Assembly (NCBI GenBank): GCA_028710155.1
Contig: JAQUSR010000001.1
Span: 1 to 47,710 of the forward strand
Length of the DNA: 47,710 nucleotides
Reading direction: 5' to 3'
Source: Bacteroidales bacterium
Lineage (GTDB): Bacteria; Bacteroidota; Bacteroidia; Bacteroidales; WRLA01
Each line of letters opens with the position of its first letter. Within the stretch, counting starts at the first letter, position 1. The position numbers and the translations under genes were made by a program. Under the pieces are notes generated by a model. That model searched no databases and was not told where the DNA came from. It saw nothing but the letters and a program-made list of their open reading frames with translations. Shown here piece after piece: positions 30,524 through 35,184 of the stretch.

Positions 30524-30531
30524 TAATTTTG
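30524..30531 (+). promoter_or_regulatory. Bacteroidota -7 promoter box upstream of the DUF4007-like remnant and the cassette
   Basis: TAATTTTG on the + strand, 8 nt before the ATG at 30539. No other TAnnTTTG lies between here and the cassette start at 30760. Confidence 0.4.
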
Positions 30532-30538
30532 CCAAAAA

Positions 30539-30747
30539 ATGGAACAAGATAAAGCAATAAATATACATTTTCTGAGTACGAATCATTCCAATGTAAGTCC
30601 ATCGGCTGAAAAAAGGATATGATTTTTATGTCACAAAACAAAGATTTTAATGAGCCGGATTCGGTTGTGAATTTAGGTGTGGGCAAAAATATGGTTTCGT
30701 CTATTCGCTTTTGGATAAAAGCCTTTGGACATAGCAATAATAATTAA
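30539..30747 (+). pseudogene. Degraded, truncated 5' fragment of a DUF4007-like gene
   Basis: Pieces in three frames read MEQDKAINI / FSEYESFQCKS / RLKKGYDF / SQNKDFNEPDSVVNLGVGKNMVSSIRFWIKAFG, then a stop at 30745-30747. This matches my recollection of the DUF4007 N-terminus (FSGHESFxCR..WLKKGYDF....LGVGKNMVxSIRFWxKAFG). A full-length protein would be about 300 aa. Confidence 0.4.
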
Positions 30748-30759
30748 AACAATTATGAT

Positions 30760-31884
30760 ATGCCAATAAAAGATTTACACGCAAAACCATTTGACGATGG
30801 TACAATAACAAAGTTGGAAATTTTTGAAAATTATGCAAAAGAATGGATTCCGACCTTTGTTATGAGTGATTATTATAGAGAGGTTTGGATTTTTGATTTT
30901 TTTGCAGGCACAGGATACGATATTAAAGGTGTTGCAGGTAGTCCAATACGTATTTTGAAACAAATAAAAGGACAAGTCGGGAATATTTTCAAAACACAAA
31001 CGAAAGTAAATATTTGTTTTAATGAATTAGACAAAGATAAGTTTAATTCATTAAAACAATCTTGTATCGATTTTATTATTAATGATGCTGAATTAGAGCG
31101 GTTACAAAAAAACAATTTTTTGAAAATTAATTATAAAAATGAAGATGTGGCCAAATTATTTCCAATTTCATTACAAACTATAAAACAATATCCTTCATTA
31201 GTTTATTTAGACCAAAATGGAATTAAATTTTTGTCAAACTCATATTTTTTAGCACTTGCAGAAACGAAAGAAACTGATTTTCTCTATTTTCTATCTTCAT
31301 CATACATAAATCATTACGGAAAAACAGTAGCATTTAAATCCACCATAAATATTGATGTTGATAGGGCAAGGCAAAATCCATATAAATATTTTCACAGAAA
31401 TGTATTAGAACAAGTTAGAGAATGGTTGCCAAAAGATTCTAAATGTGTTTTGTACCCATTTACGATTAAAAAGGGAGCGAATATCTATGGAATAATTTTT
31501 GGTGCTTCTCACCCTCTTGCCGTAAATAAATTTCTTACAACTGCTTGGAATCAAAACTCAATTAATGGAGAGGCAAATTTTGATATTGATGATGACGAAC
31601 AAAAATTACAACCGTTATTATTCGAAGATATGAAATTGCTAACAAAGAAAGAAAGTTTTAAACAAAAACTGATAGAAAAAATTCTAAACGGCAATTTAAA
31701 AAACAACAAAGATGTTTTTGATTTTACTCTACAACAAGGACACATTGCAGAACATGCAGCAGAAGCTGTAAAAGAATTGAAAAAGAAAGGGAAAATACTA
31801 TATGATGAAAAATCTCCGTTAATTAATTATGATAATGTGTATAAAAAGAAAAAAATCATTGAATATAATGTGGTTATAAAATGA
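30760..31884 (+). CDS. tcmP: Three-Cys-motif partner protein TcmP-like (Rossmann/methyltransferase-fold)
   Basis: 374 aa. N-terminal H..K...KLEIFENYAKEW pattern. SAM-motif-I-like DFFAGTG (30895-30915). FNELDKDKFNSL and LVYLDQNG (D at 31210) segments. It sits immediately upstream of, and 4-nt overlapping, a DUF5131 gene, which is the defining context of TIGR04474 as I recall it. Confidence 0.7.
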   Translation: MPIKDLHAKPFDDGTITKLEIFENYAKEWIPTFVMSDYYREVWIFDFFAGTGYDIKGVAGSPIRILKQIKGQVGNIFKTQTKVNICFNELDKDKFNSLKQSCIDFIINDAELERLQKNNFLKINYKNEDVAKLFPISLQTIKQYPSLVYLDQNGIKFLSNSYFLALAETKETDFLYFLSSSYINHYGKTVAFKSTINIDVDRARQNPYKYFHRNVLEQVREWLPKDSKCVLYPFTIKKGANIYGIIFGASHPLAVNKFLTTAWNQNSINGEANFDIDDDEQKLQPLLFEDMKLLTKKESFKQKLIEKILNGNLKNNKDVFDFTLQQGHIAEHAAEAVKELKKKGKILYDEKSPLINYDNVYKKKKIIEYNVVIK

Positions 31885-32612
31885 AAACAACAAAAATAGA
31901 ATGGACAGATAAAACCTGGAATCCAGTTACAGGATGTTCAAAGATTTCAGCAGGTTGCGTAAATTGCTATGCAGAAGTTATGGCTCGCCGCCTTCAAGCC
32001 ATGAGACAAAGTAAGTATAAAAATGGATTTGGATTGACACTGCACGAAGATGTGTTATCAAAACCAGTACATTGGAAAACACCACATACAATTTTTGTAT
32101 GTTCAATGAGTGATTTATTTCATGAAGATGTTCCTTTTGATTTCATTGATAAAGTGATAAAAACTATAGAATTAACACCACAGCATAGGTATCAATTATT
32201 GACTAAGAGGGCAGAAAGAATGGCCGAGTATTTCCAAACCCGAAAAATTCCAAAAAATGTATGGTTGGGAGTTACAGTAGAAATACAAAAATCGAAAAAT
32301 AGAATTGATATTCTTAGGAAATTGGCGGCTCCTATACGGTTTTTATCTTGTGAGCCTTTATTAGAAAATTTAGACAAATTAGATTTGACAAATATCGATT
32401 GGGTTATAGTTGGAGGAGAGAGTGGTATCTCTGCCCGTCCAATGAAATCCGAATGGGCAATGTCTATTCAAGAACAAGCAGAAAAGCAAGGTTCTGCCTT
32501 TTTCTTCAAACAATGGGGCACTTGGGGAAGTGATGGAATAAAAAGAGATAAACACAAAAACGGTAAACTCTTAAACGGTAAAGTGTGTCAACAAATGCCA
32601 CAAAGAAATTAA
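31881..32612 (+). CDS. DUF5131 / phage Gp37-Gp68 family three-Cys-motif protein
   Basis: The N-terminus IEWTDKTWNPVTGCSKISAGCVNCYAE gives C19-x6-C26-x2-C29. Other family hallmarks: FVCSMSDLFHEDVP, QLLTKR, WLGVTVE, LSCEPLL, DWVIVGGESG..ARPM, FFFKQWG. Confidence 0.85.
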   Translation: MKTTKIEWTDKTWNPVTGCSKISAGCVNCYAEVMARRLQAMRQSKYKNGFGLTLHEDVLSKPVHWKTPHTIFVCSMSDLFHEDVPFDFIDKVIKTIELTPQHRYQLLTKRAERMAEYFQTRKIPKNVWLGVTVEIQKSKNRIDILRKLAAPIRFLSCEPLLENLDKLDLTNIDWVIVGGESGISARPMKSEWAMSIQEQAEKQGSAFFFKQWGTWGSDGIKRDKHKNGKLLNGKVCQQMPQRN

Positions 32613-32635
32613 TTCTCATACAGAACAAAGGAGTT

Positions 32636-33706
32636 ATGACTCTACCATCCGACAATAAATTAGACATTCGCCCGCTTTCGCAAATCTATAATAATACAGT
32701 TACAACTTACAAATATTATTGGTTTGTGTCTATTCTTGATATTGTGTCGAAAGAAGGGCGGCGGCGTATTTCGTTTTGGGAAATAATTGTCGGGATGGTA
32801 GCCGAAGCGTGGTATCCGATACATTATTTCCGTTTATCGTATGGAAAATCCGACTCTTTATACGAGCAAATTATTGAACTACAACACAAATTAAATATTC
32901 CTATTGATGCTCAAAAAACGGATATTAAAAAGAGGATAATAAACAATCTTGAAAATTCTCAAATCAAAAGTCTTTTGCGTGTTTTTATATTAAATGTTCC
33001 TTATCGTTTTTTATCGCCTTGGATTCATTTTACAACAAATGCAGATGTTTCCATTCAATCAAAAACGTTTGCAAATAACTGTCTGTATGCCATTGATGGA
33101 GAGTATATTGACGTGAATTCATCGTGGCAGCAATATTTAACAGATCATTACGCCATACTACGCGATTTTACCTTTTGGAACTTGACTATTTTTCTGCAAA
33201 AACGTAATCCAAATGTGCCAGATATTCCGTCAAAATTGATAAAACCAATTCAACGTAATTCTCTTACCAAACAACACCATTTTTGGGATGCTTATATTGA
33301 TATTGTTGGATCAATAAAATGTATATACACAGGGAAAACGTTGCATAAAAATGAGTACGACTTAGACCATTTTATTCCTTGGAGTTATGTCTGCCACAAT
33401 TTACTTTGGAATTTATTACCAGCCGATTCGAGTATAAATTCGTCAAAAAGTAATAATTTACCGTCATTGGATGACTATCTGCGCCCTTTTGCACAAATGC
33501 ACCATAATGCGCTGAAAGAACTTTATCCACGCAATCCGAGTAACAAACTTTTAGAAGATTATCTGGTCTTGGACGATTCTATTTCTGAATTAGTGGGCTA
33601 TTCCGATGAAGATTTTTTTCGCATATATCAAAAAACCTTTTCTCCAATGACGCAAATTGCCGCAAATATGGGTTTCTCATATTGGCAAAATCCGCTTGTA
33701 AAATGA
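32636..33706 (+). CDS. HNH endonuclease-domain protein with an unassigned ~230-aa N-terminal domain
   Basis: C-terminal HNH core YDLDHFIPWSYVCHNLLWNLLPADSSINSSKSNNLP (DH at 33365-33370). The N-terminal region contains YKYYWFVSILDIV. I used the ATG at 32636. The ORF-track GTG at 32585 would overlap the upstream gene by 28 nt. Confidence 0.8.
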   Translation: MTLPSDNKLDIRPLSQIYNNTVTTYKYYWFVSILDIVSKEGRRRISFWEIIVGMVAEAWYPIHYFRLSYGKSDSLYEQIIELQHKLNIPIDAQKTDIKKRIINNLENSQIKSLLRVFILNVPYRFLSPWIHFTTNADVSIQSKTFANNCLYAIDGEYIDVNSSWQQYLTDHYAILRDFTFWNLTIFLQKRNPNVPDIPSKLIKPIQRNSLTKQHHFWDAYIDIVGSIKCIYTGKTLHKNEYDLDHFIPWSYVCHNLLWNLLPADSSINSSKSNNLPSLDDYLRPFAQMHHNALKELYPRNPSNKLLEDYLVLDDSISELVGYSDEDFFRIYQKTFSPMTQIAANMGFSYWQNPLVK

Positions 33707-34557
33707 AGAAAATTAAAAATAATTCGCATTTGACAGCTATTGCGCGCGAATCATTATCATTTCCAACACGCTGGTTAAAAGGCAAAAATCTTTTGTGCAG
33801 CGAAATTTTGGATTTTGGATGTGGTTTTGGTTTTGATACAGACGAACTTCAAAATCAAGGTTATAATATTATCGGTTACGACAATTATTATCGCCCTGAT
33901 TATCCCGATAAACGATTTGATACAATAGTATGCAATTATGTACTAAACGTTTTAGAACCAGAAGAACAAGTAGAGGTTTTAATGTCTGTTTCAGAACTTT
34001 TGAAACCAACAGGAACGGCATATTTTGCTGTGCGGCGTGATTTGAAAACAGAGGGATTTCGCACGCATTACGTTCATAAACAACCAACTTACCAGTGCAA
34101 TGTGATTTTGCCTTACAAAAGTATCTTTCAAAATGAAAATTGTGAAATATACGAGTATCGGCATTACAATCAAATTGCGCACAACTCCGATTGTCCGTTC
34201 TGTAATTTGGCAAAAGACAAAGAACTGCTTTGCGAAACGGCTACTGCATTTGCTTTTTTCGATGGATTTCCCGTAAGTAAAGGTCATACGCTAATCGTTC
34301 CAAAACGTCACGTAGCAAGTTATTTCGACCTTTCTACACACGAGCAACGAGCCTTGTGGCTGTTGACAAATCGATGCAAAAAAATTCTTGAAAAACGTCA
34401 CAATCCGGACGGTTTCAACGTTGGCATAAACGTTGGCGAATCTGCAGGACAAAGCATTTTTCACGTCCATATTCATATCATTCCGCGCTACAAAGGCGAT
34501 GTTGCCAATCCGCGTGGTGGCGTGCGTTGCGTTATTCCAAATAAACAAAATTATTGA
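33703..34557 (+). CDS. Fusion protein: SAM-dependent methyltransferase (dnd-associated TIGR04096-like) plus HIT-family nucleotide hydrolase/transferase domain
   Basis: The N-terminal half has TAIARESLSFPTR, motif I ILDFGCGFGFD, GYDNYYRPDYP and VCNYVLNVLEPEEQ. The C-terminal half has CPFC, FPVSKGHTLIVPKRH, AGQSIFHVHIHIIPRYKGD (histidine triad at 34462-34476) and a PRGGVRCVIP tail. The ATG at 33703 overlaps the HNH stop (ATGA). Confidence 0.85.
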   Translation: MKKIKNNSHLTAIARESLSFPTRWLKGKNLLCSEILDFGCGFGFDTDELQNQGYNIIGYDNYYRPDYPDKRFDTIVCNYVLNVLEPEEQVEVLMSVSELLKPTGTAYFAVRRDLKTEGFRTHYVHKQPTYQCNVILPYKSIFQNENCEIYEYRHYNQIAHNSDCPFCNLAKDKELLCETATAFAFFDGFPVSKGHTLIVPKRHVASYFDLSTHEQRALWLLTNRCKKILEKRHNPDGFNVGINVGESAGQSIFHVHIHIIPRYKGDVANPRGGVRCVIPNKQNY

Positions 34558-34927
34558 TTTCAACATAAGGCATCCATCTTCGCAATATCTGCAGAAGAAC
34601 CCGATTCTTTGGACTAATTTATTCATGTAAAAATATCAATCTATACCGCTGAAACCCGCTCTTTCAATACTCTTGCGTTCAAGGTTCTAACAGAAATTGT
34701 TACGCTATTTTTCTAACTTCGTCTCACAAAAATCAACAATTTTATAATTCCCTATCTTCGTCAATAAGTCTCTAAAATAAATTAGTTCAATTTTAGAATC
34801 ACTATAAGGAGATTTGTTAGCAACTGATGATTGATACAGAATTGGTTAGCGGTGAATATTTAAGACTAAACTCATTAAACCGCAACAAATTTTACAAAAA
34901 GATGATTGTAGTTTTTATGATTATCAG

Positions 34928-34963
34928 AAAAATTCACGTTTTTTCTAAAAAACGTGAATTTTT
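34928..34963. repeat. Perfect 17-bp inverted repeat with a 2-nt spacer (terminator and/or operator candidate)
   Basis: aaaaattcacgtttttt-ct-aaaaaacgtgaattttt (34928-34944 / 34947-34963). It lies 370 nt after the cassette stop and ends 3 nt before a TAnnTTTG box. Confidence 0.7.
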
Positions 34964-34965
34964 AT

Positions 34966-34973
34966 TAGCTTTG
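34966..34973 (+). promoter_or_regulatory. Bacteroidota -7 promoter box for the short 34990 ORF
   Basis: TAGCTTTG on the + strand, 17 nt upstream of the ATG at 34990. Confidence 0.4.
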
Positions 34974-34989
34974 TCGCAAATATTAAGCG

Positions 34990-35184
34990 ATGAAAATAGC
35001 TGAATTACTAGCAAATACGATAGATAGGATGCCGTCAGATTATGTGTTCACCTATTCCGATTTAAATATAGAGGTGAAGCAAAAAAATACGGTAGTTAAG
35101 GCGTTGAATATGCCGGCAGATACCATCAAAAAAAGCAGAATGAAACTCATTCTGCTTTTTTCAATCGATAAAAACTATTCTTAA
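34990..35184 (+). pseudogene. Possible truncated 5' fragment of an AbiEi/DUF6088-like wHTH antitoxin gene, or a small stand-alone ORF
   Basis: 64-aa ORF. The first ~40 aa (MKIAELLANTIDRMPSDYVFTYSDLNIEVKQKNTVVKALN) resemble the N-terminal pattern I recall for AbiEi_4/DUF6088 proteins. The last ~20 codons run through a terminator hairpin. Confidence 0.25.
35128..35161. terminator. Bidirectional rho-independent terminator
   Basis: aaaaaaaGCAGAATGAaacTCATTCTGCtttttt: a 9-bp stem (35135-35143 / 35147-35155) with an A-run and a T-run, 20 nt from the mmdB stop. Confidence 0.65.

Follow-up and report, generated by a model that had tools for sequence, protein, structure and literature searches.

The cassette examined here is probably what is left of an Ssp-type phosphorothioation (PT) island, now carrying two self-sufficient and mutually independent modules of two genes each: module A, the TcmP/DUF5131 pair (genes 1-2), and module B, an HNH nuclease with a methyltransferase-HIT fusion protein (genes 3-4). 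The Ssp modification genes that stood beside the HNH+HIT pair would have been lost in this genome. No intact Ssp or Pbe gene was found in the window (the whole stretch of 47,710 nt that was analysed), and our literature search found no biochemical or phenotypic work on any of the four families; the mechanisms of both modules, given below, are those that we infer.

Table 1. Features of the cassette and its surroundings (positions in the window).
Feature	Positions	Strand	Evidence and remarks
Promoter-like box TAATTTTG	30524..30531	+	Bacteroidetes -7-type; pattern match; directly 5′ of the sspB remnant
sspB (DUF4007) pseudogene remnant	30536..30747	+	In blastn, 196 nt align at 83% identity with the 5′ end of sspB in L008, where the gene is intact
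Gene 1, TcmP, 374 aa	30760..31884	+	TIGR04474, PF22560, PDC-M30A, fold model
Gene 2, DUF5131 three-Cys protein, 243 aa	31881..32612	+	PF07505, PDC-M30B, phrog_2045
Gene 3, HNH endonuclease, 356 aa from ATG	32636..33706	+	PF13395; alternative GTG start at 32585
Gene 4, methyltransferase-HIT fusion, 284 aa	33703..34557	+	Pfam HIT and Methyltransf_23
Spacer	34558..35180	.	Gene-free, between island and decarboxylase operon; holds a hairpin

An earlier note, made from the sequence alone, had described four tightly packed co-directional genes in a defence island inserted between housekeeping loci, and this holds. ATGA overlaps join genes 1 and 2 (31881-31884) and genes 3 and 4 (33703-33706), 23 nt separate the stop codon of gene 2 (32610-32612) from the ATG of gene 3, and each of the quoted protein motifs is present in the translations. 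The ATG start is favoured for gene 3 because its database homologues are 356 aa long. The insert measures 4.7 kb and lies, as had been described, between an M28 peptidase gene on the 5′ side and a methylmalonyl-CoA/oxaloacetate decarboxylase-type operon on the 3′ side. Decayed defence genes had been placed on both flanks; the upstream one is real (the sspB/DUF4007 remnant), but the downstream ORF (34990-35184) has no family match and lies in a region without similarity in the fetched loci. Beyond a perfect 16-bp hairpin (34928-34963), nothing identifiable was found in the spacer, neither an ORF with a family match nor similarity across the fetched loci. Gene 1 is poorer in GC (27.8%) than genes 2-4 (34.5-38.5%).

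The four genes are probably co-transcribed at this locus, and transcription of the entire cassette may start from the promoter-like box that precedes the sspB remnant. The assertion that no TAnnTTTG box occurs inside the cassette was mistaken, since TAGATTTG is found at 32380-32387 on the + strand. By pattern matching the window has 57 copies of the motif where 62 are expected, which is no enrichment, so that its presence or absence says little either way. In several other loci of the HNH pair the upstream gene is divergent, and the pair must therefore have its own promoter.

Gene neighborhoods separate the two modules. Among 80 species-level loci of the HNH gene, a HIT-domain gene lies directly downstream in all 80, while TcmP/DUF5131 lies upstream in only two. 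From the other side, 57 loci of close DUF5131 relatives of gene 2 with enough downstream DNA were inspected, and the HNH pair follows in one. The four genes had been read as a single system, which these counts do not support. The HNH protein of L068, another four-gene locus, is 93-95% identical to HNH proteins that have no TcmP/DUF5131 beside them; near-identical HNH proteins with and without the TcmP pair imply at least three independent juxtapositions. L008 is the closest relative of the window; the two share 82% DNA identity in genes 2-4, while gene 1 has been swapped for an unalignable TcmP allele.

The pairing of HNH and HIT is thus invariant, and the methyltransferase domain is optional: 9 of the 80 partners are HIT-only. 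It follows that the methyltransferase of gene 4 is not an obligate modifier, and the proposal that genes 1, 2 and 4 form a modification module with the HNH protein as its nuclease is not supported.

Module A is not new. Genes 1 and 2 had been taken for an uncharacterised conserved pair, which agrees with our searches, and the PADLOC catalogue already holds that pair as PDC-M30, a candidate defined by genomic association only. Both genes match its models end to end (component A, E 1.5e-138; component B, E 6e-117) and are adjacent with a 4-nt overlap; they do not differ from it in any respect and are members, whereas genes 3 and 4 fall outside it. The family assignments also hold: gene 1 scores 121.8 bits against TIGR04474 (cut-off 53) in profile search, and gene 2 matches PF07505 over its full length (355.8 bits, 1.5e-106) as well as phrog_2045 (3.5e-94). 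RadicalSAM.org lists DUF5131 among the subgroups of the radical-SAM superfamily (Megacluster-5-2), and the cysteines of gene 2 are arranged C19-x6-C26-x2-C29.

The AlphaFold model of gene 1 (pLDDT 86, pTM 0.86) was compared with known structures by Foldseek, yielding DOT1A, Trm1, METTL16 and KsgA (E 5e-5 to 1e-3, probability 1.0), and by this model the N-terminal part of TcmP has a class-I SAM-methyltransferase fold. Residues 276-351 match PF22560, a C-terminal GMT-type winged helix. TcmP shares with Trm1/DOT1/METTL16-type enzymes this Rossmann fold and motif I (DxFxGxG, conserved among TcmP homologues; DFFAGTG in gene 1), yet its TM-scores against them are only 0.3-0.47, it has no sequence-level match to solved methyltransferases, and its obligate partner is a three-Cys Fe-S-type protein. 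Most homologues carry D-P-[FYW]-G at the motif IV position, which presumably resembles the Trm1 motif; in gene 1 and its subfamily this position reads DQNG instead, so that gene 1 may not methylate.

TIGR04474 was found in 56 of 58 ORFs upstream of DUF5131. DUF5131 proteins share a median pairwise identity of 70.6%, a figure inflated because the sample was picked by similarity to gene 2, compared with 22.7% among TcmP proteins (rho 0.007); gene 2 is 81% identical to its L008 copy. A hypervariable TcmP is thus translationally coupled to a conserved DUF5131 protein. TcmP may serve as an exchangeable target-recognition/SAM-binding subunit, and DUF5131 as the catalytic Fe-S subunit of an enzyme that would modify nucleic acid (DNA or RNA).

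Module B is widespread and has so far no name. The HNH assignment of gene 3 stands (PF13395 HNH_4, 44.9 bits, 1.2e-11). At E<=1e-30 its family numbers about 519 clusters. The protein starts with a conserved domain of about 220 aa, followed by a Cas9-type HNH_4 core (D244-H245...N259...N268), whose catalytic residues are invariant in sets of 25 and 13 homologues; the core is poorly predicted in the structure model. The N-terminal domain gave no structural or sequence match to known families, and direct comparison with a known PT-binding domain and with SspB revealed no similarity.

Gene 4 is the methyltransferase-HIT fusion that had been proposed, with a class-I SAM methyltransferase at residues ~1-150 (ILDFGCGFG; Methyltransf_23, 39.6 bits, 5.5e-10) and a HIT domain at ~160-284 (HVHIHII; PF01230, 84.1 bits, 1.1e-23), the latter matching HIT/Fhit/Ap4A-phosphorylase structures in the PDB down to 4.6e-18. 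Its assignment to TIGR04096, a family of putative methyltransferases associated with PT, is not confirmed: the score of 63.5 bits stays below the cut-off of 150. The match covers the first 95 of 478 profile positions, and the remaining ~380 are missing, with the HIT domain instead. The methyltransferase domain is nevertheless related to the TIGR04096-type core, as seen from this match and from an alignment with the pSYSM TIGR04096 protein (98 aa, 36% identical). Gene 3 is thus translationally coupled to a HIT protein of the nucleotide hydrolase/transferase kind, and the HNH and HIT catalytic motifs of the two genes are intact.

Evidence for the Ssp origin begins at the 5′ edge of the cassette. 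sspB is the DNA-recognition/nickase gene of Ssp-type PT systems; the remnant here, whose translation includes LGVGKNMVSSIRFWIKAFG ahead of a stop, has an in-frame stop codon and breaks off after about 65 codons. The L008 protein is identified as SspB both by PADLOC (4.4e-87) and by Pfam DUF4007, and the gene order there is SspB-SspC'-TcmP-DUF5131-HNH-MT/HIT-PbeA. Ssp or Pbe genes occur within 8 kb of 14 of the 80 HNH loci and of 0 of 79 DUF5131 control loci (p=6.6e-5), though the other 66 HNH loci have none in that range. Ssp genes adjoin the HNH gene in 7 of 11 distant plasmid contexts, and on cyanobacterial plasmids the HNH gene sits inside ssp operons, in the order sspB-sspC-HNH-sspD. Across phyla, the HNH family is thus linked to sspABCD genes by genomic context.

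From this context we infer that gene 3 may read PT. The HNH protein would be a restriction-type effector that began as an auxiliary nuclease in Ssp systems, with an N-terminal domain that reads a state of the DNA and an HNH core that nicks or cuts it, while the HIT partner may control or clean up the reaction at the nucleotide alpha-phosphate, e.g., of adenylylated or thio-nucleotide species.

Two groups of known systems are close to module B. sspB, sspC, sspD-like and pbeA-D-like genes of SspABCD-SspE, SspFGH and PbeABCD systems flank the pair in the 14 loci and the closest relative, but none of the Ssp/Pbe effector models in PADLOC picks up gene 3. PT-dependent restriction endonucleases of Dnd loci, ScoMcrA type, combine wHTH(SBD), SRA and HNH domains (PMC10853773, PMC7461809). 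Like gene 3, these are HNH nucleases with a non-catalytic N-terminal reader region, encoded inside or beside PT modification operons. Unlike them, gene 3 has an N-terminal domain without detectable sequence or fold similarity to SBD/SRA, an HNH of the Cas9-like HNH_4 type and partners of Ssp type (DUF4007/SspC/PAPS reductase) rather than Dnd, and its family in Bacteroidales is obligately paired with a HIT protein.

Some features would fit cooperation of the separable modules at this locus, with TcmP/DUF5131 replacing the lost SspC/SspD as self-marking and the Ssp-derived HNH protein reading or sparing that mark. In L008 the TcmP/DUF5131 pair occupies the exact place that 3′ sspC and sspD hold in relatives, e.g., L081 (SspB-SspC-PAPS-reductase-like-HNH), and each juxtaposition has the same position and orientation, 3-44 nt from the HNH gene. 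We nevertheless think this unlikely. Many genes of other kinds also fill the slot 5′ of the HNH gene (YhcG-type nuclease, Fic, AAA_21/RloB, XRE regulators, primases), there is no modification module close to most HNH pairs, and HNH proteins of 60-85% identity would hardly read two chemically different marks.

Slightly less likely still is that HNH+HIT, rather than being an immune module, serves mobile elements in a selfish or maintenance role, either as an addiction (toxin-antidote) pair or as a homing-type nuclease that promotes recombination at island borders. The pair does lie beside relaxase, primase and integrase genes of small mobilisable elements (L001-L003, L015, L017, L024), variable cargo is always on its downstream side, in several loci it directly borders truncated sspB remnants, and its conservation is very high despite lateral spread to contigs binned to MAGs of Clostridia, Tissierellia, Acholeplasma and Methanobrevibacter. 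Many copies, however, are chromosomal, in islands that contain no mobility genes, the pair is nearly absent from viral contigs (two relatives among 2.9 million), and the deep association of the HNH family with Ssp operons suggests a role in PT-based discrimination.

Least probable is a single translationally coupled four-gene system in which nucleic acid is modified by three of the proteins (TcmP, DUF5131, methyltransferase-HIT) and the fourth, the HNH protein, is the nuclease that discriminates, for which the tight packing speaks, as does the order common to the closest relative (L008-L012), L047 and L068, but 78 of 80 HNH+HIT loci do without TcmP/DUF5131 and 56 of 57 DUF5131 loci without the HNH pair, near-identical HNH proteins are found in both settings, TcmP is exchanged independently of genes 2-4, some partners lack the methyltransferase domain, and PADLOC models PDC-M30 as a two-gene candidate.

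What speaks against two mutually independent modules is that the four genes come together in this order at least three times, with gaps as short as 3-44 nt, and this repetition could mean more than crowding within islands.

We conclude that the cassette consists of two adjacent, separable modules: module A, the TcmP and DUF5131 genes (genes 1 and 2), and module B, an HNH nuclease gene paired with a gene for a methyltransferase-HIT (MT/HIT) fusion (genes 3 and 4). This follows from synteny examined from both the gene 3 and the gene 2 sides. A scan with gene 3, taking one genome per species, yielded 80 loci whose proteins are 57-73% identical to gene 3. A HIT-domain gene is found directly 3′ of the HNH gene in all 80, and DUF5131 directly upstream of it in only two (L047 and L068); seven more metagenomic loci gave the same outcome. 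From the other side, 79 metagenomic loci were collected whose DUF5131 proteins share 68-78% identity with gene 2, and among the 57 with at least 1.2 kb of downstream sequence the HNH pair follows in one, apparently on the same 63,621-bp contig as L068. An earlier note on this DNA had read genes 1-4 as one modification-plus-nuclease system. Its family assignments and defence-island context stand, but the single four-gene system is not supported; genes can be closely packed within a defence island without belonging to a single system, and a tempting over-reading is corrected.

The closest relative (L008-L012, Paludibacteraceae; gene 3 85% identical) has all four genes in the same order. Local cooperation of the two modules in this lineage, with TcmP/DUF5131 taking the place of a lost SspCD of the DNA phosphorothioation (PT)-linked Ssp system, seems quite improbable. 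The HNH protein of L068 is 93-95% identical to those of L074, L071 and L079, all of which are without the TcmP pair, and the closest matches to the L047 HNH protein (82%) are also without it, so that the juxtaposition must have arisen at least three times, with fast turnover. Between the window and the closest relative, genes 2-4 align at 82% DNA identity while gene 1 cannot be aligned, and its TcmP product has little similarity to that of the relative. The island has a GC content of 33% against about 39% in its surroundings; within it, genes 2-4 have 34.5-38.5% and gene 1 only 27.8%. The low GC of gene 1, together with its being the sole unaligned part of the cassette, fits recent allele replacement. 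At several HNH loci the gene preceding the HNH pair is divergent, which means that the pair must have its own promoter.

The window spans a whole contig (47,710 bp) from a Bacteroidales metagenome-assembled genome. The observations of the earlier note were largely borne out: the four forward-strand ORFs, both ATGA overlaps (genes 1 and 2 share 4 nt) and the 23-nt spacing ahead of gene 3 lie exactly as stated, all the motifs it quoted were found in the translations, and the flanking housekeeping loci are, as described, an M28 peptidase gene and a methylmalonyl-CoA/oxaloacetate-decarboxylase-type operon. The ATG start of gene 3 is favoured over the GTG, since its homologues are 356 aa long. The absence of a TAnnTTTG box from the cassette had been offered in support of a single operon; there is one, and the argument is in any case uninformative, since the window has no excess of the motif (57 observed, 62 expected). 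The inverted repeat in gene 1 came from a terminator scan. No RNA family was found in the window with Rfam.

Features of the cassette and its immediate flanks, with positions in the window
Feature	Coordinates	Strand	Description
Promoter-like box	30524-30531		TAATTTTG; precedes the sspB remnant
sspB remnant	30536-30747		truncated sspB (DUF4007) pseudogene with in-frame stop, upstream of gene 1
Gene 1	30760-31884	+	TcmP ORF
Inverted repeat	31014-31059		AT-rich, 19-bp stem, inside the gene 1 coding region
ATGA overlap	31881-31884	+	genes 1 and 2
Gene 2	31881-32612	+	DUF5131 ORF
TAnnTTTG box	32380-32387	+	within the cassette
Gene 3	32636-33706	+	HNH ORF from ATG; alternative GTG start at 32585
ATGA overlap	33703-33706	+	genes 3 and 4
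Gene 4	33703-34557	+	MT/HIT fusion ORF
Downstream stretch	34558-35180		about 620 bp, no identifiable gene
Hairpin	34928-34963		perfect, 16 bp
Small ORF	34990-35184		64 aa, no family match

In module A, the TcmP assignment of gene 1 was confirmed by TIGR04474 (121.8 bits, cut-off 53, profile positions 3-262 of 263), with a GMT-type winged helix at the C-terminus found by HMM search, and the DUF5131 assignment of gene 2 by PF07505 (355.8 bits, 1.5e-106, positions 1-243 of 243), with the three-Cys motif C19-x6-C26-x2-C29 present in the translation. The PADLOC models PDC-M30A (PDLC04568; 1.5e-138) and PDC-M30B (PDLC04569; 6.1e-117) match genes 1 and 2, respectively, end to end, and the two genes are a member of this already catalogued, unstudied two-gene candidate, PDC-M30. 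The literature searched for DUF5131, TcmP, Gp37Gp68, PF22560, PDC-M30 and TIGR04096 gave listings and no functional study, and no experimental report of anti-phage activity of PDC-M30.

ORFs directly upstream of DUF5131 genes match TIGR04474 in 56 of 58 cases. Among 56 of the metagenomic DUF5131 loci (1,540 pairs), the median pairwise identity is 70.6% for DUF5131, a figure inflated by the choice of the sample for similarity to gene 2, versus 22.7% for the TcmP partners, and the two are uncorrelated (rho 0.007). Given the DUF5131 similarity, the divergence of the TcmP partners is still real. A conserved DUF5131 beside a hypervariable TcmP, with no correlation between them, suggests from these comparisons that TcmP alleles may be freely exchanged, as with specificity subunits. 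Near-invariant in TcmP are K18, a DxFxGxG motif and D151/G154; residues 151-154 read D-P-[FYW]-G in 36 of 58 sequences and DQNG in the gene 1 subfamily.

The AlphaFold model of gene 1 is confident (pLDDT 86, pTM 0.86), and Foldseek matched it to the class-I SAM methyltransferases DOT1A, Trm1, METTL16 and KsgA (E 5e-5 to 1e-3, probability 1.0), with modest TM-scores; going by the model, these fold neighbours would fit an RNA as well as a DNA target. By sequence, TcmP matched no solved structure, and a viral structure library returned only generic methyltransferases for it. PHROGs has no family for gene 1 or gene 3, and an exact-sequence look-up of gene 2 gave no match. RadicalSAM.org lists DUF5131 as a radical-SAM subgroup, although its C-x6-C-x2-C motif differs from the canonical CX3CX2C, and gene 2 scores 93.9 bits against TIGR04471 (cut-off 355). 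TcmP/DUF5131 may be a two-subunit enzyme that modifies nucleic acid: DUF5131 would be its catalytic Fe-S subunit, and target recognition and SAM binding would fall to TcmP as the exchangeable one. A conserved Fe-S-type enzyme with a freely swapped, hypervariable methyltransferase-fold partner is a pattern typical of specificity or sensor subunits, and this exchange pattern can guide the first biochemical tests of module A.

Gene 3 was verified as an HNH nuclease by PF13395 (HNH_4; 44.9 bits, cut-off 22). Its homologues are conserved over their whole length, with catalytic D244, H245, N259 and N268 invariant across phyla. The family is very widespread: it comprises about 519 clusters at 50% identity (E<=1e-30), nearly all of 350-380 aa, and occurs in at least 80 Bacteroidales species and on plasmids of other phyla; it is almost absent from viral contigs (two relatives in 2.9 million). 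The first ~220 residues have neither a Pfam domain nor a sequence match in the PDB, Foldseek gave nothing for them below E 0.7, and a profile search of PDB sequences with gene 3 found only Cas9 HNH domains. Assignment of the N-terminus as a ScoMcrA-type sulfur-binding domain was dropped after the PDB sequence search and Foldseek gave no assignment, and kinship with the SspB triple-wHTH was rejected (profile-profile probability 0.2%). ScoMcrA-type PT-dependent enzymes carry a wHTH SBD and/or SRA N-terminal to the HNH, whereas neither was detected in gene 3.

The HIT domain of gene 4 is well supported (PF01230, 84.1 bits, cut-off 21.5; HVHIHII in the translation) and is of the Hint/Fhit/Ap4A-phosphorylase kind, with PDB matches to 4.6e-18. 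HMM search places a class-I methyltransferase domain in fusion with it. Assignment of this part to TIGR04096 failed (63.5 bits against a cut-off of 150, positions 4-95 of 478 only); over 98 aa, its core shares 36% identity with the TIGR04096 protein encoded on Synechocystis pSYSM, and only generic small-molecule-type families match, with no DNA methyltransferase family among them. In nine of the 80 HNH loci (L021, L026, L034, L038, L041, L066, L083, L086 and L092) the HNH gene is directly followed by one for a HIT-only protein (~125-155 aa), which matches gene 4 residues ~161-284 and is without the methyltransferase domain. The HIT domain is thus the obligate partner and the methyltransferase domain optional, and protection against the HNH nuclease by the gene 4 methyltransferase is ruled out as a core restriction-modification logic. 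From general HIT chemistry, and since Hint enzymes desulfurise nucleoside thiophosphates, the substrate of the HIT domain may be an adenylylated or thio-nucleotide intermediate; alternatively, it may be a nucleotide signal. Apart from generic HNH and HIT similarity, no PADLOC defence model, Ssp models included, matches gene 3 or gene 4, and the pair is named in none of the libraries or literature searched, where we found no functional study of HIT+HNH defence.

The HNH pair has a specific link to Ssp phosphorothioation that is undescribed in the searchable literature. Ssp/Pbe-type genes (Pbe, like Ssp, is PT-linked) lie within 8 kb in 14 of 80 HNH loci versus none of 79 DUF5131 loci (Fisher p=6.6e-5), and with only loci of at least 10 kb counted, in 14 of 62 versus none of 22 (p=0.016). 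Plasmids of Cyanobacteria, Cytophagia and Proteobacteria carry full-length gene 3 homologues (28-36% identity), and Ssp genes stand alongside the homologue in seven of 11 distinct plasmid contexts. It adjoins sspA-B-C-D in Hymenobacter (L173) and lies in the operon order sspB-sspC-HNH-sspD on the Geminocystis (L181) and Cyanobacterium HL-69 (L183) plasmids; other companions are sspB, an sspC fragment, sspA and the TIGR04096 methyltransferase (Synechocystis pSYSM), sspC and sspA (Leptolyngbya), DUF4007 (Annamia), and an sspA-like gene with a TIGR04096-type methyltransferase (NIES-970). As a fifth gene of the Ssp operons of L173, L181 and L183, the HNH gene is unnamed in the literature searched. 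A comparative study of PT systems (PMC10853773) describes wHTH(SBD)+SRA+HNH nucleases in the PT-linked Dnd loci; targeted term searches of it gave no mention of the gene 3 family or of a HIT (histidine-triad) partner.

In the window, no intact sspA-D is present, only the truncated sspB remnant, which has 83% DNA identity to the 5′ end of L008 sspB, an intact gene; in L008 the order is SspB, SspC fragment, TcmP, DUF5131, HNH, MT/HIT, PbeA, small ORF, PbeC-like, 190-aa ORF. In L064, L065 and L069, too, short 5′ remnants of sspB lie right against the HNH gene. Transcription of the cassette may now start from the former sspB promoter. Gene 3 probably represents a family of nucleases accessory to Ssp-type systems; in Bacteroidales this family would have acquired a HIT partner, with which it now mostly travels as an independent pair. 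This link is a concrete, testable entry to the roles of HIT enzymes in DNA-based immunity, and although the locus is without the coherence the earlier note proposed, it yields two testable leads.

A wider reading, which we consider unlikely, is that HNH+HIT is an undescribed Ssp-type PT-immunity effector, with TcmP/DUF5131 replacing SspCD as the marker in this and a few other lineages. The dedicated HNH nuclease would then read the state of the DNA backbone, the HIT enzyme would have as its substrate an adenylylated or thio-nucleotide DNA intermediate or a nucleotide signal, and the radical-SAM-type TcmP/DUF5131 modifier would be the marking module working with them. If true, it would give HIT chemistry on DNA its first role in defence.

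Elsewhere the defence and mobility genes around the HNH pair vary from locus to locus: Wadjet-like operons, PLD-helicase pairs, PbeABCD-like genes, Fic, YhcG-type nucleases, AAA_21/RloB, XRE regulators, and relaxase and primase genes. Identification of the PLD-helicase neighbours as TIGR04095 PT-dependent restriction enzymes was not supported. Among the 80 HNH loci the genes that come after the pair on its own strand usually make up a different multi-gene defence system (Wadjet-like, PLD-helicase, Pbe-like, or large helicase/ATPase genes), and the pair looks like the conserved left border of a variable cargo. In another Bacteroidales genome (L085) the pair adjoins the same decarboxylase operon in the opposite relative orientation, a hint of repeated insertion at one site or of an inversion.
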